In this document: piece by piece, positions 4,898-62,742 of the stretch
How the letters are laid out: every line of letters begins with the position of its first letter
Position numbering within the stretch: position 1 is the stretch's first letter
From: Candidatus Peribacteria bacterium RIFCSPHIGHO2_01_FULL_51_35
Lineage (GTDB): Bacteria > Patescibacteriota > Gracilibacteria > Peribacterales > Peribacteraceae
Reading direction: 5' to 3'
Length of the DNA: 64,000 nucleotides
Assembly: GCA_001787535.1 (NCBI GenBank)
Contig: MFXP01000006.1
Span: forward strand, 56,339 to 120,338
The notes under the pieces: generated by a model
Database searches by the model: none
Seen by the model: only the letters and a program-made list of their open reading frames with translations
Told to the model about the DNA's origin: nothing
Translations under genes and position numbers: made by a program

Positions 4898-4971
4898 TGG
4901 AGCGGGATACGAGAATCGAACTCGCGTCTCAAGCTTGGGAAGCTCGCGTACTGCCACTGTACTAATCCCGC
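4898..4971 (-). tRNA. tRNA-Gly (anticodon CCC), CCA encoded
   Basis: Reverse complement GCGGGAT..CGAGC-TTCCCAA-GCTTG..GTTCGATTC..ATCCCGCTCCA folds as a cloverleaf. Confidence 0.9.
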
Positions 4972-4994
4972 ACTTTTTCCCCACACGCGTGAAA

Positions 4995-5071
4995 TGGAGC
5001 GGATGACGGGACTCGAACCCGCGACCTTCGCCTTGGCAAGGCGACGCTCTAGCCAACTGAGCTACATCCGC
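4995..5071 (-). tRNA. tRNA-Gly (anticodon GCC), CCA encoded
   Basis: Reverse complement GCGGATGTAGCTCAGTTGGCTAGAGCG-TCGCC-TTGCCAA-GGCGA..GGTTCGAGTCC..CATCCGCTCCA. Confidence 0.9.
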
Positions 5072-5131
5072 AGAACCTGGAGATGCTACGAATCTTCGGC
5101 TTTCGATGCAAGTCAGAAAACACCCATCAAA

Positions 5132-5206
5132 TGGTGCCCTCGACAGGAATTGAACCTGTACTTCCAGCTTCGGAGGCCAGTGGTCTATCCGTTAACCTAC
5201 GAGGGC
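5132..5206 (-). tRNA. tRNA-Arg (anticodon CCG), CCA encoded
   Basis: Reverse complement GCCCTCGTAGGTTAACGGATAGACC-A-CTGGC-CTCCGAA-GCTGG..CAGGTTCAATTCCTGT-CGAGGGCACCA. Confidence 0.85.
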
Positions 5207-6049: not shown

Positions 6050-6568
6050 ATGAACATCCACACACAAACCATCATCGGCACGTTCGCAGGCGTTTTGATA
6101 GGTCTTTCCGTTTCCGCTGCTTCCGAAAACTTCAGCGCAGGACTCATGAGTATCAAACCGAGAATGATTACCGATTCGTGCCTGACACAAGGTAATGGAT
6201 CGCTGGCATGCCAAGGGTGTTTGAAAAATTCATGTAGGAACCAAACCAAGACAGGAGCTCTGCAAGAGTGTCTTGTGAGTTGCAGCGGAGAACCCAAGCT
6301 CCATGGCAGTGCAGCGGACAGGTGCACGGCACAAGGCAATGGAAGTGAATCATGCAATACATGTTTGAAGAACGCATGCAGGACTGCATCCACGGAATAT
6401 GCAGCGGTCATCTGCGAACGAAGTTGCAAGACGGGCACGGAAGGGGAAGACCCCGCTTGTTTGCAGCAAGGAAACGGCAGCGTACGATGTGCCACCTGTT
6501 TGGAAGATCGTTGCGAAAAACACAGTACGTCACAGTCGCTGTATTTGTGCAGGTATCGCTGCCTGTAA
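6050..6568 (+). CDS. secreted/membrane-anchored cysteine-rich protein with three internal repeats
   Basis: 172 aa with an N-terminal hydrophobic segment. Three repeats of C-x2-QGNGS-x2-C-x2-CL-x3-C...C-x3-C (18 Cys in total). Confidence 0.6.
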   Translation: MNIHTQTIIGTFAGVLIGLSVSAASENFSAGLMSIKPRMITDSCLTQGNGSLACQGCLKNSCRNQTKTGALQECLVSCSGEPKLHGSAADRCTAQGNGSESCNTCLKNACRTASTEYAAVICERSCKTGTEGEDPACLQQGNGSVRCATCLEDRCEKHSTSQSLYLCRYRCL

Positions 6569-6881: not shown

Positions 6882-6957
6882 TGGTGGGTCGGGCGGGACT
6901 TGAACCCGCGACCAAAGGCTTAAAAGGCCTCTGCTCTACCAACTGAGCTACCGACCC
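6882..6957 (-). tRNA. tRNA-Lys (anticodon TTT), CCA encoded
   Basis: Reverse complement GGGTCGGTAGCTCAGTTGGTAGAGCA-GAGGC-CTTTTAA-GCCTT..GGTTCAAGTCC..CCGACCCACCA. Confidence 0.9.
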
Positions 6958-10424: not shown

Positions 10425-10458
10425 GGAAAGCGCAGTAGACAAGAAAAGAAGGACGGAG

Positions 10459-10660
10459 GGGTGGCGCGCCACCCACTTACGTCTGCGGACTCCGGTGGGC
10501 AGGGGGGGGTGAAGTGGATCGCCGCCTTGAAAAATTTCCGTAGCGCAACTTGACGAAGCGGAGCGCCCGAAAAATGCATGTTTGAGGCTGAGCGGAGCGA
10601 AGCCGAGTTTTGCATTTTTCAGCGGAGCGAGCCATTGTTGCGCAGGAAATTTTTCAGAGC
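10459..10660. repeat. composite nested palindromic repeat locus
   Basis: Shares ggtggcgcgccac...ggggggtgaag with 47929/59004 and gccgccttgaaaaatttccgtagcgcaacttg with 58950-58987. It also holds a reverse-oriented GC-rich R2-type element (cccacttacgtctgcggactccggtgggcagg). Internal inverted repeats occur at 10526-10555/10633-10658 and 10570-10588/10605-10620. Confidence 0.65.
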
Positions 10661-10784
10661 GGCATGTTTTCTTTGCTCCACTTTCTTGTGCGCCACAAGA
10701 AAGTGGAAACCCTTAAAGGGCAACAGCTGGGAGTCAGCAATCATGAATTGACTCCCATCGTTCTTCCTCTCATACTCCCTCCCC

Positions 10785-15545: not shown

Positions 15546-15596
15546 AATGACCAATGACCTGCCTGCCGGTAGGCAGGCGCAATGACCAATGACCAA
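15546..15596. repeat. AATGACC-family repeat arm (left flank of four-helix-bundle cassette)
   Basis: aatgaccaatgacc[tgcctgccggtaggcaggcg]caatgaccaatgaccaa is the reverse complement of the 16120-16149 core. Confidence 0.8.
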
Positions 15597-15610
15597 CTTG
15601 CTATTTTGAT

Positions 15611-15997: not shown

Positions 15998-16119
15998 GAA
16001 ATCATCCTATATTGTGCTTATGGAATCGAAAATAGGGATATCTCTATGTCATTTTCATAACCTTCTTTTTTTGACTTACAGCAATGCTAAATTAAGTTCT
16101 ATAGCATGGCAGAACCCCC

Positions 16120-16149
16120 TTGGTCATTGGTCTATGGTCATTGGTCATT
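16120..16149. repeat. GGTCATT-family 30-nt core (right flank of cassette)
   Basis: TTGGTCATTGGTCTATGGTCATTGGTCATT is identical to 62713-62742. Confidence 0.9.
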
Positions 16150-17050: not shown

Positions 17051-18037
17051 TCATCGACAGATGACTGCCTTCACATCATCAATGCGCTCTGCGAGCACCA
17101 GTTTTGCACGCATTTCTTTCGCACCATCCACTCCCTTTACGTAGCTCGCCAAGTGTCTGCGCATTTCCAGCATTCCCCTCTTTTCGCCTTTCGTTCGCAC
17201 GGCAAGTTCGCAATGTTCCAGAATCCAGGGGATTTTTTCTTCGAAAGTTGTTGGTGTAGAGATCGACCGCTGGTCGATCTCACGTTGGTCATTGGTCATT
17301 GGTCTATGGTCATTTCTCAAGGCCTCAACAATCTCCCCCATCACCCAAGGGTTTCCAAATGTCCCCCGCCCCACCATCACGCCATCCAAATTGCCGATTT
17401 TTGCGACGGCGTCGGCTGCAGACATGATGTCGCCATTGCCGATGACGGGCACGGAGACTTCTCGCTTGAGTTCGTAGATGGGATCCCAATTCGCCGCGCC
17501 GCTGAATTTATCATGGTAACGGCGGCCGTGGATTGCGAGAGCCTGAGCGCCCGCTTCCACCAGACCTTTGCAGAAAGGAATCAGCGTATCGATGCATTCC
17601 CATCCGAGACGCGTCTTCACGCTCACGGGAATCTTCACAGCCTTCACCGTTGCATGGACGAGCTCTGCCGCAAGTTTCGGATTGCGGATCAACGCCGAGC
17701 CATGACAAGAGGAAACGACCTTTGCTGCGGGACAACCCATGTTGATGTCGATGCCGTCCGCCCCAAGTTGCTCGATCACCTTCGCAGCACTGAGGAAATG
17801 CTCCGGATCTTTGCCAAACACCTGCACGATGAACGGTCGCTCCAACGTGGGATCGAAATTGAGCAATTCCATCGTCTTCTTCGCGCCGTAGTGGATGGCA
17901 TCGGTGCTCAGAAACTCCGTGTACACGATCACTTCGGGTGCGATCCTTTTGATGAGTTGTCGGTACGACGCATCCGTCACGCCCGCCATAGGGGCAAGTG
18001 CGACAATGGGCCGGGGGGTGGTCTGCCAGGAGAACAT
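17051..18037 (-). CDS. dusB: tRNA-dihydrouridine synthase (Dus family)
   Basis: LAPMAGVTDASYR, IDINMGCPAAKV, VSVKTRLGW and VMVGRG motifs. The C-terminal region contains the repeat-derived segment NDHRPMTNDQREIDQRSIST. Confidence 0.92.
   Translation of the reverse strand: MFSWQTTPRPIVALAPMAGVTDASYRQLIKRIAPEVIVYTEFLSTDAIHYGAKKTMELLNFDPTLERPFIVQVFGKDPEHFLSAAKVIEQLGADGIDINMGCPAAKVVSSCHGSALIRNPKLAAELVHATVKAVKIPVSVKTRLGWECIDTLIPFCKGLVEAGAQALAIHGRRYHDKFSGAANWDPIYELKREVSVPVIGNGDIMSAADAVAKIGNLDGVMVGRGTFGNPWVMGEIVEALRNDHRPMTNDQREIDQRSISTPTTFEEKIPWILEHCELAVRTKGEKRGMLEMRRHLASYVKGVDGAKEMRAKLVLAERIDDVKAVICR
17255..17314. repeat. 60-nt composite palindromic element inside the dusB coding sequence (in frame)
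   Basis: gtagagatcgaccgctggtcgatctcac (GTAGAGA hairpin family) plus ttggtcattggtcattggtctatggtcatt (GGTCATT family). 60 nt equals 20 codons. Confidence 0.8.
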
Positions 18038-18044
18038 GATGAAA

Positions 18045-18150
18045 CGATTGTTATCGTGTACGATTGTTATATTGTTACATTGTTATATTGTTCGCAAGCG
18101 AGCCCCACTGATTTTTCATCAAAACAATATAGCAATATAACAATATAACC
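18045..18150. repeat. ATTGTTAT-family long inverted repeat (copy 1 of 3)
   Basis: cgattgttatattgttacattgttatattgttcgcaagcga - loop - aacaatatagcaatataacaatataacc. Related copies lie at 46095-46186 and 53681-53773. Confidence 0.85.
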
Positions 18151-24868: not shown

Positions 24869-24978
24869 GTAGAGACGTCCCGGCGGGACGTCTCTACTGA
24901 CGGAGATGAGGATCCCCTTCGACGTCAGTAGAGACGCGACACCTGTGGTGAGCTTGTCGAACCATGTCGCGTCTCTAC
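24869..24978. repeat. two tandem GTAGAGACG...CGTCTCTAC hairpins
   Basis: gtagagacgtcccggcgggacgtctctac (13-bp stem) and gtagagacgcgaca-N23-tgtcgcgtctctac (14-bp stem). Confidence 0.85.
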
Positions 24979-33750: not shown

Positions 33751-33824
33751 TGGAGCGGGTAGCGGGAATCGAACCCGCATCCTCAGCTTGGAAGGCTGAT
33801 GTACTACCACTGTACGATACCCGC
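33751..33824 (-). tRNA. tRNA-Gly (anticodon TCC), CCA encoded
   Basis: Reverse complement GCGGGTATCGTACAGTGGTAGTACA-TCAGC-CTTCCAA-GCTGA..GGTTCGATTCC..TACCCGCTCCA. Confidence 0.9.
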
Positions 33825-46094: not shown

Positions 46095-46186
46095 TATTCG
46101 CAAGTTATATTGCTATATTGTTATATGGTTACCTCAAATTCGATCCGTGCTTGGCTAACAATATAGCAATATAACGTATAGCAATT
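46095..46186. repeat. ATTGCTATATTGTTAT-family long inverted repeat (copy 2 of 3)
   Basis: ttcgcaagttatattgctatattgttatatgg - loop - ggctaacaatatagcaatataacgtatagcaa. Confidence 0.8.
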
Positions 46187-47107: not shown

Positions 47108-47680
47108 ATGGCACTCATCCTTGCTTCAGCCAGTCCGCAACGCAAAACCCTTCTTCGGGGAATCGGCGTTTCCTTTCAAGCGATCCCAAGTTCTATTGAT
47201 GAAAATGCCTGCGACGAAAAAGATCCGGGCAAACGTGCGGAAACATTGGCACTTTTGAAAGCACGCGATGTGAAAACATCACACCCCAATGATTGGATCC
47301 TCGGCTGCGACACGCTGGTGGAAGCCCATGATGGCTCGGTCTTGGAAAAGCCGGCAGATGCTGCTGATGCGCGAAGAATGATCGCACTACAGAGCGGCAA
47401 AACATCAAAAGTCCATTCTGCCATCGCATTGATCGCTCCTGCCGGAAAAGAATATGTCGGCCTTTCCACCTCGCACGTCCGTTTCGCTACGCTTGATACA
47501 AAGACGATCGATGCATGGATCGAACAAGGATTCTGGGAAGACCGTTCGGGGGCCTTTCAAATCGACGGCCCCGGACAGTTATTGATCGAGCATCTGGAAG
47601 GAGACTGGACAGGGGTCGTGGGGCTGCCGGTTTTCCTCTTCGGACAGCTGTATCGCAAAGCGGGCTTGGCCATCACGTAA
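47108..47680 (+). CDS. maf: Maf-like nucleoside triphosphate pyrophosphatase
   Basis: LILASASPQRKTLL, GCDTLV and GAFQIDG motifs. Confidence 0.9.
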   Translation: MALILASASPQRKTLLRGIGVSFQAIPSSIDENACDEKDPGKRAETLALLKARDVKTSHPNDWILGCDTLVEAHDGSVLEKPADAADARRMIALQSGKTSKVHSAIALIAPAGKEYVGLSTSHVRFATLDTKTIDAWIEQGFWEDRSGAFQIDGPGQLLIEHLEGDWTGVVGLPVFLFGQLYRKAGLAIT

Positions 47681-47928
47681 TATTTGCTTCTGCGGGATCC
47701 GATCCTTCCCCAATGCGCGTGTCTTGATAATATTTACCGGCTTCGGCTCCGCCTTTGTCTTCCTGGGTCTTCTGATCATCGTCATCACCATTACCGCCGT
47801 TCTTTTTTTTCTTTGGCTCATCAAACATACGTAGAGATTGGAAAAGTATTTCTGATGATAGCGAAAAAGGAACATCGGAGCCAGAAAGAATATGTTTTAA
47901 TTTCTTCCTCTCGTTCGAAGCAAAATTC

Positions 47929-48114
47929 CATAGGAGGGGTGGCGCGCCATGGGGGGTGAAGGGGAAGCCCCTGTTTTCCGTCCCGCGCATGCGGGACGGA
48001 GTCGAACGAGCCGAGCCGAAGCCTTGGAGGCTCGGCGAGGAGACACAGGGGCGGGCGGAGGAGCTCTGGCGCGCCGGCGTTTTGGCTCCACCTTTGTCGC
48101 CGGACAAAGGTGGA
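47929..48114 (+). repeat. 186-nt structured repeat element, copy A (candidate ncRNA or MITE-like element)
   Basis: Conserved termini are shared with 59004-59172 (ggtggcgcgcca.ggggggtgaaggggaag ... ggcgcgccggcgttttggctccacctttgtcgccggacaaaggtgga). Three internal helices are maintained by different sequences. Confidence 0.8.
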
Positions 48115-48134
48115 AAAACAAGAATCAATCATGG

Positions 48135-48163
48135 TAGAGATCGACCAGCGGTCGATCTCTACA
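48135..48163. repeat. GTAGAGATCGACC...GGTCGATCTCTAC hairpin (family copy)
   Basis: gtagagatcgaccagcggtcgatctctac. A near-identical unit lies inside dusB at 17255-17283. Confidence 0.85.
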
Positions 48164-49969: not shown

Positions 49970-50633
49970 CTACCGGCAGAGCCGGTAGTATGAGGAAAGC
50001 CCCTGGAAGGGGCTAAGTAGGAATGCATACTACCGATGGCTCTGCTTCTTAATTCCAGTACAGATCAAGTTGTGGACCGTCGAAGAATTGATCGTTCTTC
50101 CATTGGTCTTGGATGTATTTGCGGATGGCATCGGGATCTTGACCGACGGTGCTCACGAAGTATCCGCGAGACCAGAAGGATTTTTGGGGACCTCCTTGCT
50201 TGCGCTTGGAACACTGCTGATGGATGCGGATAGCGCTTTTCCCTTTGAGGAATCCCATGACATGGGCGACGCTGTATTTGGGCGGGATGGAGAGGAGGAG
50301 ATGAATGTGGTCGGGGCAGGCATTTCCTTCGAGCACTTCGGTTTCCTTCTGCTTGCTAAGCTCTCGAATGATTTTGCCAACCTGGACACGCACAGCTCCG
50401 TACAGGATTTTTTTGCGGTACTTTGGTACAATCACGATGTGGTACTTACAGTTCCATATCGTGTGGCTCTGTGATTAGAAAGAACACATGTGTTGAGACA
50501 GGGAATGCTCCTTCGCTGGGACTTTCCCTGTACCAAAGTACCGTATGCCAATGCCGGGACGGTGGAACCTGGCGGCGTCTCACCGGCGGAGCCGGTGGTT
50601 TCCAAATAGGGAATGACCAAGATGGTTTGGCTA
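49970..50633 (-). mobile_element. IS200/IS605-family insertion sequence (about 660 bp, boundaries approximate)
   Basis: A single Y1-transposase gene with similar subterminal hairpins in direct orientation: ctaccggcagagccggtag (49970-49988) and caccggcggagccggtgg (50581-50598). Confidence 0.75.
50049..50435 (-). CDS. tnpA: IS200-type Y1 (HUH) transposase TnpA, apparently lacking a canonical start
   Basis: PKYRKKILYG, PDHIHLLLSIPPKYSVAHVMGFLKGKSA (HUH) and FWSRGYFVSTVG (catalytic Tyr). The frame stays open upstream (SQSHTIWNCKYHIV) to a TAA at 50475-50477, with no ATG and only the GTG at 50435. Confidence 0.85.
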   Translation of the reverse strand: MIVPKYRKKILYGAVRVQVGKIIRELSKQKETEVLEGNACPDHIHLLLSIPPKYSVAHVMGFLKGKSAIRIHQQCSKRKQGGPQKSFWSRGYFVSTVGQDPDAIRKYIQDQWKNDQFFDGPQLDLYWN

Positions 50634-52814: not shown

Positions 52815-53681
52815 ATGGAGAAAAAAATCGTCACGGTCGGCTTGGTACAAATGCAGTGCACTGCCTCTGCGGAAGACAACCTCAAACGCGCACTGCAAAA
52901 AATAGACGAAGCGGCCCAGAAAGGCGCACAGATCGTGTGCTTGCCCGAACTCTTTTTGAGTCCGTACTTCTGCCAACGCCCGGATGACAAAGCAGCGCTG
53001 GAATTGGCAGTGCCGTTGCCCAATGCCGTGACGGAAGCATTGGGCAGGAAAGCCAAAGAACACGGCATCGTGCTGATAGGCGGATCACTGTACGAACTGG
53101 GAAAGGACGGCAAACGCTATAACACGGCTCCCGTGTTCAATACCGATGGCACGATGCTCGGAACGTACCGAAAGACACACATTCCCGAAGACATCTTGTA
53201 TCACGAGCAGCATTACTTCGAACCAGGAAACACCGGCATCAAAATTTTTGATACACCCTTCGGAAAAGTCTGCCCGCTGATCTGCTTCGACCAATGGTTT
53301 CCGGAGGCAGCCCGCATCGCAACGCTGAATGGAGCCGAAATCATCTTCTATCCCACTGCCATTGGAACCATTGATGATGAAGTGGAAGAAAACATCACAG
53401 GCGATTGGGAGCAGATGTGGCGCAGCGTCCAAGTGGGACACGGAGCCGCAAATTCCGTGTATATCGCCGCAGTGAATCGTGTCGGCAAAGAAGACCATAT
53501 CAACTTTTGGGGAGGATCGTTCATTGCCGACCCTGCCGGACAAGTTCTGGTAAAAGGCGACGACAAAGAATCGACCATTATCGCAGAGTGCGATTTGAAC
53601 CGCGTGAAAGCATTGCAGGATGCATGGCGATTCTTAAACAATAGAAGACCGGACGTGTATCACGATCTCACAAAATTGTAA
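52815..53681 (+). CDS. aguB: N-carbamoylputrescine amidase (carbon-nitrogen hydrolase family)
   Basis: VGLVQMQC....NL......I.EAA.KGAQIVCLPELF, YRKTHIPE and ICFDQWFPE (E-K-C triad context). Confidence 0.85.
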   Translation: MEKKIVTVGLVQMQCTASAEDNLKRALQKIDEAAQKGAQIVCLPELFLSPYFCQRPDDKAALELAVPLPNAVTEALGRKAKEHGIVLIGGSLYELGKDGKRYNTAPVFNTDGTMLGTYRKTHIPEDILYHEQHYFEPGNTGIKIFDTPFGKVCPLICFDQWFPEAARIATLNGAEIIFYPTAIGTIDDEVEENITGDWEQMWRSVQVGHGAANSVYIAAVNRVGKEDHINFWGGSFIADPAGQVLVKGDDKESTIIAECDLNRVKALQDAWRFLNNRRPDVYHDLTKL

Positions 53682-53773
53682 TGTTACATTGTTATATTGC
53701 TATATTGTTCGCAAGCGAAACGTTCGGTCTCTGCGTGGCTAACAATATGACAATTTAGCAATATAACAATAAC
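53681..53773. repeat. ATTGTTAT-family long inverted repeat (copy 3 of 3)
   Basis: atgttacattgttatattgctatattgttcgcaagcga - loop - ggctaacaatatgacaatttagcaatataacaataacc. Confidence 0.85.
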
Positions 53774-54860: not shown

Positions 54861-55565
54861 ATGAGCAAAGAACACCCGCAGCAGGATGCCAAGCCGGAGC
54901 ACGGCAAACGCGACGAGTTCCTCTCCAAAACCGGAGAGAAGGCAGAGGAGTATGCGAAGGATTATTTTTCAAAAGTCAAAGAAGCACATGCGGAAGATCA
55001 CTGCCAAGGCTGCCACAATCGTGTGAACAAGACGGAGAAGATGGTGAAGACGACCTTGATCGTGAGCATTCTCGCGTTTCTGCTTTCGACTGCTTCGCTC
55101 GCTCTCCCCTTTCTTACATCCGATGCCGTGCAATTCAGCCCGAAGGAATGGGAACAATTTCTGACAACACTGGAAGAAAGTTTGAAAACAGAAACGCCGG
55201 CAGTTCCGCCGCCGGCAGGTGCATCAACACAGAAGCCGGCGCCGAGCAAACCCGTGACAAATAAACCTGCTTCCTCGGCACAGCAAAGCTCACTGATGGC
55301 AGCAGCGGTTTCCAGTCGTGCACAGAGTTCGACCGCTGTCATAACAAGTTCTTCGCGCGTCGCTGTTGGCGATGGGGTGCAATCGAGCAGTGAACAAGTG
55401 ACAAACTCCAGCCAAGCAAGCAGTGAAACAGCACAGGAAAGCAGCGTCGCCCAATCTTCCACTGCAGAACGCTCATCTGTTCCTCCGGCAGATGGCGGTG
55501 CCGGGATGGGAAAGGATCCGGGCACTCTAAAACCATGGTGGACGATACTGGGTTCGAACCAGTGA
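54861..55565 (+). CDS. hypothetical membrane-anchored Ser/Thr/Ala-rich protein
   Basis: One TM helix (TTLIVSILAFLLSTASLALPF) followed by a low-complexity S/T/A/Q-rich region. The 3' end overlaps tRNA-Val by 30 nt on the opposite strand. Confidence 0.45.
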   Translation: MSKEHPQQDAKPEHGKRDEFLSKTGEKAEEYAKDYFSKVKEAHAEDHCQGCHNRVNKTEKMVKTTLIVSILAFLLSTASLALPFLTSDAVQFSPKEWEQFLTTLEESLKTETPAVPPPAGASTQKPAPSKPVTNKPASSAQQSSLMAAAVSSRAQSSTAVITSSSRVAVGDGVQSSSEQVTNSSQASSETAQESSVAQSSTAERSSVPPADGGAGMGKDPGTLKPWWTILGSNQ

Positions 55566-55612
55566 CCTTACGAATGTGAATCGTACGCTCTAACCAGCTG
55601 AGCTAATCGTCC
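55536..55612 (-). tRNA. tRNA-Val (anticodon CAC), CCA encoded
   Basis: Reverse complement GGACGATTAGCTCAGCTGGTTAGAGCG-TACGA-TTCACAT-TCGTA..GGTTCGAACCC..ATCGTCCACCA. Confidence 0.9.
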
Positions 55613-58927: not shown

Positions 58928-58949
58928 ATTTTTTTAGCAAGAAGAACGG

Positions 58950-58987
58950 GATTGCCGCCTTGAAAAATTTCCGTCGCGCAACTTGGA
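58950..58987. repeat. repeat module shared with 10517-10555
   Basis: gattgccgccttgaaaaatttccgtcgcgcaacttgga versus gatcgccgccttgaaaaatttccgtagcgcaacttga. Confidence 0.8.
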
Positions 58988-59003
58988 GAGCAGAGTCTTA
59001 GGT

Positions 59004-59172
59004 GGTGGCGCGCCACGGGGGGTGAAGGGGAAGACCCAGCTTCACGCCGCAGCGTGGACGACGAGTCGGCTCCGAAGCCTTGGAGGAGCCGACGAGGAGG
59101 TGCTGGGTCGGGTGGAGGGGCTATTGGCGCGCCGGCGTTTTGGCTCCACCTTTGTCGCCGGACAAAGGTGGA
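59004..59172 (+). repeat. 169-nt structured repeat element, copy B (candidate ncRNA or MITE-like element)
   Basis: Same termini as copy A. Helices acccagc/gctgggt, cacgc/gcgtg and gtcggctcc/ggagccgac replace cccctgt/acagggg, ccgtcccgc/gcgggacgg and gccgagcc/ggctcggc. The loop gaagccttgga is identical. Confidence 0.8.
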
Positions 59173-59237
59173 TACCTAAAGATGGCAGAGAACCAAGAGA
59201 GTTGTGACCTCCAATTCACCGTGTACAATAGCCGCCT

Positions 59238-62673: not shown

Positions 62674-62742
62674 CCAATGACACAATGACCAATGACCATA
62701 TTGATTTCTTTCTTGGTCATTGGTCTATGGTCATTGGTCATT
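62668..62742. repeat. GGTCATT-family complete hairpin (both arms)
   Basis: aatgaccaatgacacaatgaccaatgaccata - 12 nt - TTGGTCATTGGTCTATGGTCATTGGTCATT. The left arm contains the stop codon of the upstream gene. Confidence 0.9.

Follow-up and report, generated by a model that had tools for sequence, protein, structure and literature searches.

The ERIC/IRU, BOX and bcr-type repeats are sequences of ~100-200 nt that occur in many copies, lie between genes, often after genes or inside operons, adopt stable folds and can be read through from neighbouring genes; how they spread is unknown or only indirectly known, and for some, compensatory changes indicate that the fold is selected. Here we analyzed a 64,000-nucleotide stretch of Candidatus Peribacteria bacterium RIFCSPHIGHO2_01_FULL_51_35 (GenBank assembly GCA_001787535.1, contig MFXP01000006.1, positions 56,339 to 120,338 of the forward strand; hereafter the window), an organism known from a groundwater metagenome. 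The window carries two copies, A and B, of an element that is likewise a many-copy structured intergenic repeat. The known repeats have no sequence relationship to it and are essentially long imperfect palindromes or modular hairpins, whereas the Peribacteria element combines a closing helix, a large internal loop that is purine-rich and asymmetric, a three-way junction, three G·A motifs and a hairpin set apart at the 3′ end, with loops that are conserved over a whole family-level clade of the candidate phyla radiation (CPR). CPR bacteria have tiny, streamlined genomes, cannot be grown alone and have very few known non-coding elements, and a repeat present at roughly 10-40 copies per ~1.2-Mb genome, with such clade-wide loops and more than 30 covarying base pairs, is notable among them.

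Other described systems share part of this behaviour. REP/BIME sequences (RAYT) and IS200/IS605-derived PATEs resemble the element in having no inverted repeats or duplications, in forming hairpins in a single strand, in lying after genes or between convergent genes and in showing lineage-specific sequence "dialects". REPs, however, are 20-40-nt palindromes with a 5′ GTAG, whereas the element is ~180 nt long, lacks GTAG and has a complex core with one terminal hairpin; PATEs carry similar hairpins at both ends, whereas the element has a local hairpin at its 3′ end only. The element also shows no link to the IS200-like gene resident in the window. Orphan multi-copy RNA motifs from comparative genomics, such as TD-1 or HEARO (the IscB omega-RNA before its function was known), are comparable in their complex covarying fold, many copies, narrow taxa and lack of a consistent regulated gene, but the element differs from them in having no match in Rfam 15, no attached nuclease or transposase open reading frame (ORF) and almost no G·U pairs. 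Integron attC sites conserve structure over stem sequence, function as a single strand and lie at gene 3′ ends; the element differs in that R/L boxes (GTTRRRY), cassette arrays and an integrase context are absent, single copies stand among housekeeping genes and the loops are conserved too. The terminal inverted repeats of DDE-type miniature inverted-repeat transposable elements are lacking, as is the target-site duplication that these have in common with retroposons, and no protein cluster of the kind that accompanies retron msr-msd, IS110 bridge RNA or omega-RNA (reverse transcriptase, DEDD recombinase, TnpB/IscB) recurs in the family loci.

A covarying fold with conserved loops

An earlier note, made from the letters of the window alone, had reported two copies of a candidate structured RNA on the + strand with shared ends. 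Both lie where it placed them, and we refined the limits of the unit to 47933-48118 (copy A) and 59001-59175 (copy B), from the start of a G-rich leader to a few A's past the last hairpin. The two shared blocks of that description are present as well: the 5′ block ggtggcgcgcca[tc]ggggggtgaaggggaag is alike in A and B, its 17-mer GGGGGGTGAAGGGGAAG occurs exactly twice in the 64-kb window (0.1 expected at ≤3 mismatches), and the 48-nt 3′ block TGGCGCGCCGGCGTTTTGGCTCCACCTTTGTCGCCGGACAAAGGTGGA is identical between the copies, with 0 expected. A coding role was rejected, as the 5′ blocks lie in different frames in A and B and the spacing of the blocks differs by 8 nt.

When each copy was folded separately, the minimum free energy structures had the same architecture. 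Fold energies are -109.1 kcal/mol for A and -90 kcal/mol for B (z of -6.6 and -4.3 relative to dinucleotide-shuffled sequences); of 200 shuffles, 0 are as stable. Three helices that the earlier note had called the outer helix, helix 1 and helix 2, here P2, P3 and P4, were recovered in these independent folds with the compensatory differences it had described: CCCCUGU/ACAGGGG in A versus ACCCAGC/GCUGGGU in B for P2, CCGUCCCGC/GCGGGACGG versus CACGC/GCGUG for P3, and GCCGAGCC/GGCUCGGC versus GUCGGCUCC/GGAGCCGAC for P4, whose loop context CCGAAGCCTTGGAGG is, again as reported, the same in both. What it had missed are P1, the tandem G·A pairs in the core helices, the exact unit limits and an aberrant third copy. 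P1 is a 9-bp closing helix around the whole core, (U)GGCGCGCC(A) with (U)GGCGCGCC(G), and because it closes the core, the end blocks shared by A and B become the opposing strands of a large internal loop rich in purines. The hairpin P5 is confined to the elements within the window.

To extend the comparison beyond two copies, as the earlier note had suggested, the 17-mer GGGGGGTGAAGGGGAAG was scanned over one genome per species and matched at least 118 stretches. Among the matches listed, 70 are family members, all in Candidatus Peribacteria, Peribacteraceae or Peregrinibacteria metagenome-assembled genomes (MAGs), and the other 48 are chance matches in other phyla; judged by these sequences, the family is restricted to Peribacteria among the matches listed. 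A phage origin was also considered, but the three viral contigs with the 17-mer turned out not to be family members. A structure-blind MAFFT alignment of 51 copies (A2) served as the basis of a covariance model (R1), which recovered 73 copies from ~30 species-level Peribacteria/Peregrinibacteria genomes; these were fitted to the model as alignment A3. On the window, the model scores copy B at 167 bits (E = 6.6e-38). A second scan, of metagenomes with the P4 pattern and hence independent of the 5′ loop, found 11 further members. Their 5′ loop reads GGGGGUGAAGGGG(A/U/G)AG, and because it is kept in copies found through P4, its conservation is not an artefact of ascertainment.

From 5′ to 3′, the family consists of a leader, P1, an internal loop, P2, a three-way junction with P3 and P4, P1′, a U-rich linker, P5 and an A-rich tail, over a unit length of ~165-190 nt. 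The consensus leader is (U)GGNGGG, followed by 1-2 nt before P1, a 9-bp helix that reads GGCG/CGCC in some copies and CCGC/GCGG in others, with 21-28 double changes per pair. The loop strands have the consensus CGGGGGGUGAAGGGGAA on the 5′ side and CGGGYGGAGGRGCUYU on the 3′ side; P2 has 7 bp, and P3 ranges from 0 to ~85 nt across the family. The P4 consensus, GCC-GA-C-GA-G...stem...C-GA-G-GA-GGC, contains two tandem G·A/A·G motifs flanking a C-G pair, and in its cap, C-GAAKCCYUGGA-G, the first and last two bases again form G·A and A·G, a third such motif. At four column pairs, G·A/A·G persists in 40-50 of 51 copies, and all Watson-Crick pairs of P4 covary. The GGAGG-like motif that the earlier note had seen in the P4 loop is present there, within this conserved G·A-closed loop, but is not evidently a ribosome-binding site. 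The linker consensus is RGCGYUUU, with a U-tract that begins 4 nt after P1′, and P5, of 11-14 bp with a pyrimidine-rich 5′ arm and a purine-rich 3′ arm, covaries as two main types, CCACCUUUGUC and CUUCUUUCUUUGUC. Two main subtypes of the whole element, P1 GGCGCGCC with P5 CCACCUUUGUC and P1 CCGCCGCC with P5 CUUCUUUCUUUGUC, stand side by side within genomes.

The covariation seen between A and B holds on these many more copies. In A3, 97.1% of cells are paired, compared with 37-44% when partners are slid by 1-3 columns, and 32 of 37 pairs show double-sided changes; in A2, which was aligned without regard to structure, 94.9% are paired, ~43% when slid, and 30 of 37 pairs have changed on both sides. 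The observed values were reached by 0 of 500 shuffles of either alignment, and RNAalifold, unaided, returned 36 pairs, with double changes in 31. Selection on structure is therefore strongly supported. The earlier note had proposed selection on structure rather than on sequence, which can be refined: sequence is selected too, the loops being the most conserved parts of the element. Two further features did not hold up: a leader-linker pairing that would extend P1 is inconsistent between copies, and a G-quadruplex in the internal loop is unsupported because conservation does not extend to the first G-tract of the 3′ loop strand.

A search of Rfam 15 (cmscan at gathering and permissive thresholds, with the window copies and a consensus-like copy) matched no known family. 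In the window only tRNAs pass, and the best hits over the elements (E = 0.29-6) are far below gathering scores and belong to unrelated eukaryotic families. A description of the element was likewise not found in the literature searched on structured RNAs, ncRNAs, repeats and intergenic sequences of Peregrinibacteria/Peribacter. The elements are a previously undescribed family.

Turnover, exchange and genomic context

The family behaves as a dispersed repeat. At least 11 copies with the exact 17-mer are present in the ~1-Mb UBA11694 assembly, the 64-kb window holds two copies and an aberrant one, and reads of the source metagenome cover the shared blocks 18-40 times as deeply as the flanks. Decayed copies also occur (L037, L035 and copy C of the window). 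Identity is higher within genomes than between them, at the ends (0.82 versus 0.73) and in the centre (0.84 versus 0.67). Loci L063 and L110, 30 kb apart with unrelated flanks, are 99% identical from the leader GTGGG to just past P5, and L081 and L100, at unrelated loci, are 98% identical and have in common a derived 85-nt palindromic insertion in the P5 loop. This insert (GTCCTTCGGCTTCGCTCAGGAC ... GACCCTGAGCGGAGTCGAAGGGTC; L081:6560-6660 and L100:2490-2590) resembles a separate, nested miniature element. In the LaPlata genome, the shared unit reaches ~20 nt further on each side. Two UBA11694 copies have a common upstream repeat, in which the C-rich run TCCCATCCCACCCTTCCC comes after a hairpin, GGGAGGGAAACC-nnnn-GGTTTCCCTCCC (L001:1745-1815 and L022:3470-3540).

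The ends, GGNGGG... and ...hairpin plus A's, contain no terminal inverted repeats, and no target-site duplication was detected, the longest word shared by the two flanks averaging 5.35 nt against 5.32 nt after shuffling and reaching 8 nt in no case. The flank before the leader is T/A-rich and has no fixed word. Positions turn over between related genomes: the syntenic loci L006 and L016, with flanks 79% identical, have one element each, ~1 kb apart, and L062, L043, L028, L104 and L051 bear an element where the syntenic window has none, and vice versa. At 79% flank identity, the empty-site junctions are too diverged to be read. Exchange between resident copies is apparent at L095, which has the position and P1/P5 type of its ortholog L042 together with the P3-P4 centre of its genome-mate L092, a mosaic for which gene conversion is the best explanation. 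A strain contig that encodes the identical downstream protein changes context exactly at the 5′ border of copy B, which reflects recombination between copies or else a chimera created when the repeat was assembled.

Genomic context was determined from crude ORF calls for 54 copies, 45 of them classifiable. The copies are always intergenic, mostly past the 3′ ends of genes, and in either orientation relative to their neighbours: 20 (44% of those classifiable) lie between convergent genes and 6 between divergent genes, tandem gene pairs enclose 11 in antisense and 8 in sense, and 39 of the 45 are downstream of at least one gene end. The end of P5 is 1-50 nt from the stop codon of the convergent gene in 24 of 34 cases, and the median gap is ~100 nt on the 5′ side versus ~30 nt on the 3′ side. 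A co-oriented downstream gene is present for 16 of 50 copies, with its start 5 to >600 nt away. No recurrent protein family was found in the flanks or anywhere in the 8-kb family loci, where the largest protein "cluster" consists of spurious ORFs through the element itself, and no transposase, recombinase or reverse transcriptase recurs near the copies in these loci.

The signals modelled were sigma-70-type promoters and hairpin-plus-U-tract terminators. No -10/-35 signal recurs at a set spacing from the element, a match at 9 or more of 12 positions being present in 1 of 70 upstream regions; an independent gene with a sigma-70 promoter was rejected on this absence of a positional signal. P5 forms no hairpin plus U-tract terminator, since U's precede and A's follow it on both strands, the wrong way round for an intrinsic terminator, a role that was rejected for it. 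Few of the adjoining gaps contain a canonical terminator: 5 of 25 upstream of the element and 4 of 34 downstream of it. The GC skew of the window was unusable for assessing replication-strand bias, and the orientations in UBA11694 are mixed.

A possible mobile structured repeat or functional RNA

The earlier note had left two branches, a small structured non-coding RNA (ncRNA) family or a structured mobile element. A family is confirmed, and sharp-bordered paralogs, turnover and the lack of a promoter, terminator or gene association make the evidence lean to the mobile or repeat branch. We tentatively favor a structured repeat without inverted repeats or duplications that is multiplied, moving or recombining, is recognized as a folded single strand by a trans-acting factor and probably also serves as a REP/ERIC-like 3′-end structure. 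The family, its fold and covariation and its repeat-like genomic behaviour are established; how it is copied, the trans factor, the acting molecule (RNA or single-stranded DNA, ssDNA) and the influence on 3′ ends are what we infer. Under this model, a non-autonomous repeat would be multiplied and moved within small Peribacteria genomes, its copies would go on swapping segments through recombination or gene conversion, and selection would preserve the single-strand fold, with the invariant loops and the P1/P5 sequence types as putative recognition surfaces for a factor encoded elsewhere in the genome. As nearly all pairs are Watson-Crick, both strands fold, and since the flanking genes mostly lack terminators of their own, transcripts entering from either side would adopt this very stable structure, so the copies are probably also 3′-end structures in the manner of REP/ERIC. 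The explanations discussed here are not mutually exclusive.

Several base-level features point away from a conventional RNA gene and are a signature of a fold kept in both strands or in DNA. G·U is found in 32 and A·C in 22 of 2460 cells (22 versus 14 in intact copies); both are thus equally rare, for which reason the reverse complement retains 87% of the folding energy. The P3 hairpin is mostly capped by C-GAA-G (14 copies), C-GUA-G (3) or C-CGCA-G (11), with no GNRA or UNCG loop among its caps, and the exact heptamer GCGAAGC is present in about ten copies. d(GCGNAGC), GCGAAGC included, is a hyperstable DNA minihairpin. Together with the parity of G·U and A·C, the folding of the reverse strand and the indifferent orientation, these triloop caps are the pointers in that direction.

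A number of observations weigh against a mobile repeat. Neither a mobilizing enzyme nor an insertion event was found in the family loci or among near-identical strains, and no empty-site allele was seen in those strains, all of which carry copy B. Orientation is mixed within 20 kb of one contig, which argues against fork-linked ssDNA transposition of the IS200/IS605 type, and the sharp-bordered near-identity of paralogs can also come from gene conversion among copies already in place. Positional orthologs change fewer pairs than neutrality predicts, so that resident copies seem to be constrained, and pairing stays at 97% while unpaired columns differ by 15-30% between copies. A three-way junction, three conserved G·A motifs and loops that are invariant over family-level divergence are traits met in functional RNAs more often than at transposon ends, as is variation by hairpin "expansion" insertions at peripheral sites (L012, L008, L035, L104 and L005). 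Finally, metatranscriptome assemblies hold family members, one of them a 181-nt contig that approximates a single element while others run into the flanks, although these contigs are unstranded and may contain DNA.

The main rival is a paralogous structured ncRNA family, duplicated and homogenized by gene conversion, in which the G-rich strand is transcribed and acts as RNA, whether as a protein scaffold, as a ribozyme or through sequestration by its many GGA/GGAGG-like motifs. We regard this as possible, though the less probable account. The complex, strongly covarying fold with its most conserved loops and tandem G·A motifs, length variation limited to peripheral hairpins, pairing retained by positional orthologs, the coexistence of two subtypes within genomes and the metatranscriptome contigs all suit an RNA, and the longer 5′ gap leaves room for a non-canonical promoter. 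Such a gene, however, would have no sigma-70-like promoter at a fixed distance and no U-tract terminator, would be indifferent to the orientation of neighbouring transcription and would turn over in position between related genomes. Nor is G·U favored over A·C, the commonest P3 caps (C-GAA-G and C-GUA-G) are DNA-type triloops, and in the RNA run the shared blocks are covered at roughly the flank depth multiplied by the copy number, with no sign of strong expression.

An effect on 3′ ends might instead be the primary function, with the element acting in cis as a bidirectional barrier, stabilizer or terminator after genes, especially convergent ones, and working both ways since both strands fold; we consider this unlikely. 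The frequent position downstream of gene ends and between convergent genes, the proximity of P5 to convergent stop codons, the rarity of canonical terminators in the gaps, the Watson-Crick-only pairing with a reverse strand at 87% of the energy and the U-tract 4 nt past P1′ are all as expected of such a module. A stabilizer or terminator, however, needs neither invariant 17-nt loops nor a G·A three-way junction, and the tracts around P5 are the reverse of those of an intrinsic terminator. The gene convergent with copy A has its own canonical terminator between it and the element, and purifying selection on insertions predicts an intergenic 3′-end bias equally well. Of similarly low probability, in our estimate, is that the element is the substrate or the RNA/ssDNA component of an undescribed CPR-specific system, either an RNA of a new class, catalytic or scaffolding proteins, whose core is a three-way junction rich in G·A, or a new kind of transposition or recombination that is free of target-site duplication and recognizes a 180-nt folded strand instead of simple hairpins.

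An IS200/IS605-type (Y1 HUH) non-autonomous or REP-like element, moved in the form of folded ssDNA by the IS200-like TnpA whose gene lies 2 kb from copy A, seems improbable. Absent inverted repeats and duplications, a subterminal 3′ hairpin, a strand-specific fold with DNA-like wobble and loop statistics, and the Y1_Tnp gene itself (Table 1) would agree with it. That gene, however, has its own, unrelated flanking hairpins and is the sole one of its kind, as no Y1 transposase was found in the other 70 family loci; the element has no P5-like 5′ subterminal hairpin and no conserved 4-5-nt target before the leader, its orientation is mixed over short distances, and the separate GTAG...CTAC palindromes of the window are a better fit to REP/RAYT. 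A riboswitch or other 5′-leader regulator of a downstream gene, with P5 sequestering the ribosome-binding site, is very improbable and largely refuted by context: the architecture is aptamer-like with conserved junction and loop nucleotides, and P5 has a Shine-Dalgarno-like stretch in its purine-rich 3′ arm (AAAGGUGGA or GAAAGAAGGAGG), but it was rejected on orientation and the absence of a gene class, as just 16 of 50 copies have a co-oriented downstream gene at widely varying distance, the downstream proteins share no common family, copy A has no downstream gene on its own strand, and a promoter-like site for the next gene follows copy B.

If the element is selfish, it is unusually sophisticated and raises the question of what recognizes and copies it; the alternative is a novel structured RNA that serves the cell. 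In Peribacteria MAGs, the repeat gives rise to recombination and to breaks in the assembly. It can be annotated with the covariance model and offers a marker for strain-level rearrangements.

The aberrant third copy and other features of the window

The coordinates of the copies and of the other features are collected in Table 1. The aberrant copy C keeps the leader, the 5′ strand of P1 (GGAGGGGTGGCGCGCCAC), an extra hairpin and GGGGGGGGTGAAGTGGA, and ends with a P5-like hairpin, CCACTTTCTTGTG-CGC-CACAAGAAAGTGG. The 3′ strand of P1 is missing, and the P2-P4 core is replaced by a long inverted repeat that is AT-rich and may represent a second small repeat family or result from a rearrangement; the left half of this inverted repeat recurs just upstream of copy B. 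Because this 42-nt fragment repeats the inner part of copy C, it is the remnant of another repeat unit adjoining copy B. A putative fourth copy at 6431 was rejected, as it is a 28-nt partial match only (82% to copy B), the element is not continued beyond it and the covariance model does not match.

Table 1. Coordinates of the element copies and of other features in the window
Feature	Position	Strand	Sequence or remark
Copy A, G-rich leader	47933..47939	+	GGAGGGG; G dominant at 7-8 positions before P1 in 54-70 copies; identity of near-identical paralogs begins here
Copy A, P1 5′ strand	47941..47949	+	GGCGCGCCA; pairs with 48067-48075 (fold)
Copy A, internal loop 5′ strand	47950..47966	+	UGGGGGGUGAAGGGGAA; most conserved segment
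Copy A, P2 5′ strand	47967..47973	+	GCCCCUG; pairs with 48046-48052; double changes in 6 of 7 pairs
Copy A, P3 variable hairpin	47978..47999	+	CCGUCCCGC-GCAU-GCGGGACGG (fold)
Copy A, P4 long helix	48001..48044	+	two tandem G·A/A·G motifs, GUC-GA(A)-C-GA-G ... C-GA-G-GA-GAC
Copy A, P4 conserved loop	48018-48028	+	GAAGCCUUGGA; 11 nt
Copy A, internal loop 3′ strand	48053..48066	+	GGGCGGAGGAGCUC; GGAG core is the best-conserved part
Copy A, P1 3′ strand	48067..48075	+	UGGCGCGCC (fold, covariation)
Copy A, linker	48076..48086	+	GGCGUUUUGGC
Copy A, P5 hairpin and A-rich tail	48087..48118	+	UCCACCUUUGUC-GCCG-GACAAAGGUGGA; 12-bp hairpin
Copy B, leader	59001-59005	+	
Copy B, P1	59007-59015 with 59125-59133	+	
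Copy B, internal loop strands	59016-59032 (5′), 59110-59124 (3′)	+	
Copy B, P2	59033-59039 with 59103-59109	+	
Copy B, P3	59043-59056	+	
Copy B, P4	59057-59101	+	loop 59074-59084
Copy B, linker	59134-59144	+	
Copy B, P5	59145-59172	+	
Copy C (aberrant)	10455..10709	+	weak covariance-model matches, E = 0.18 and 2.1
AT-rich inverted repeat in copy C	10521-10650		GCCGCCTTGAAAAATTTCCGTAGCGCAAC ... GTTGCGCAGGAAATTTTTCAGAGCGGC
42-nt fragment directly upstream of copy B	58944..58985	+	90% identical to 10511-10552 inside copy C
GTAG...CTAC palindromes	1020-1048, 24869-24897, 17256-17281, 48134-48162		REP-like; e.g. GTAGAGATCGACCAGCGGTCGATCTCTAC
IS200-like Y1 transposase gene	50049-50435	-	Pfam Y1_Tnp, E = 7e-33; flanks to ~50700
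TGGTCAT(T) / CAATGACCAATGACC repeats	16119-16149, 17270-17314, 62712-62742, 15580-15607, 62683-62710	both	short dispersed tandem repeats
TGTTATATTG-type repeat	18049-18101, 46103-46173, 53674-53757		8-nt tandem units, then conserved TTCG.TC..TGC.TGGCTAACAATAT block
Candidate small acidic ORF	47673-47828	-	MFDEPKKKKNGGNGDDDDQKTQEDKGG..., ~51 aa
Six tRNA genes	4898-5206, 6882-6957, 33751-33824, 55536-55612	-	Gly-CCC, Gly-GCC, Arg-CCG, Lys-UUU, Gly-UCC, Val-CAC

The window contains further repeats. One of the REP-like GTAG...CTAC palindromes lies 20 nt past copy A, and another abuts a run of TGGTCAT repeats, which also adjoin the IS200-like gene. That gene has its own flanking hairpins, with AATGACCAATGACCA repeats upstream, its flanks and ends are unrelated to the structured element, to which it shows no link, and it could be the RAYT partner of the palindromes. 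At a position in another genome (L051) that is syntenic to 53.7 kb of the window, a structured element takes the place of the repeat with 8-nt units. A candidate small acidic ORF lies between maf and copy A, on the strand opposite to the element, and the six tRNA genes of the window are all on the minus strand.

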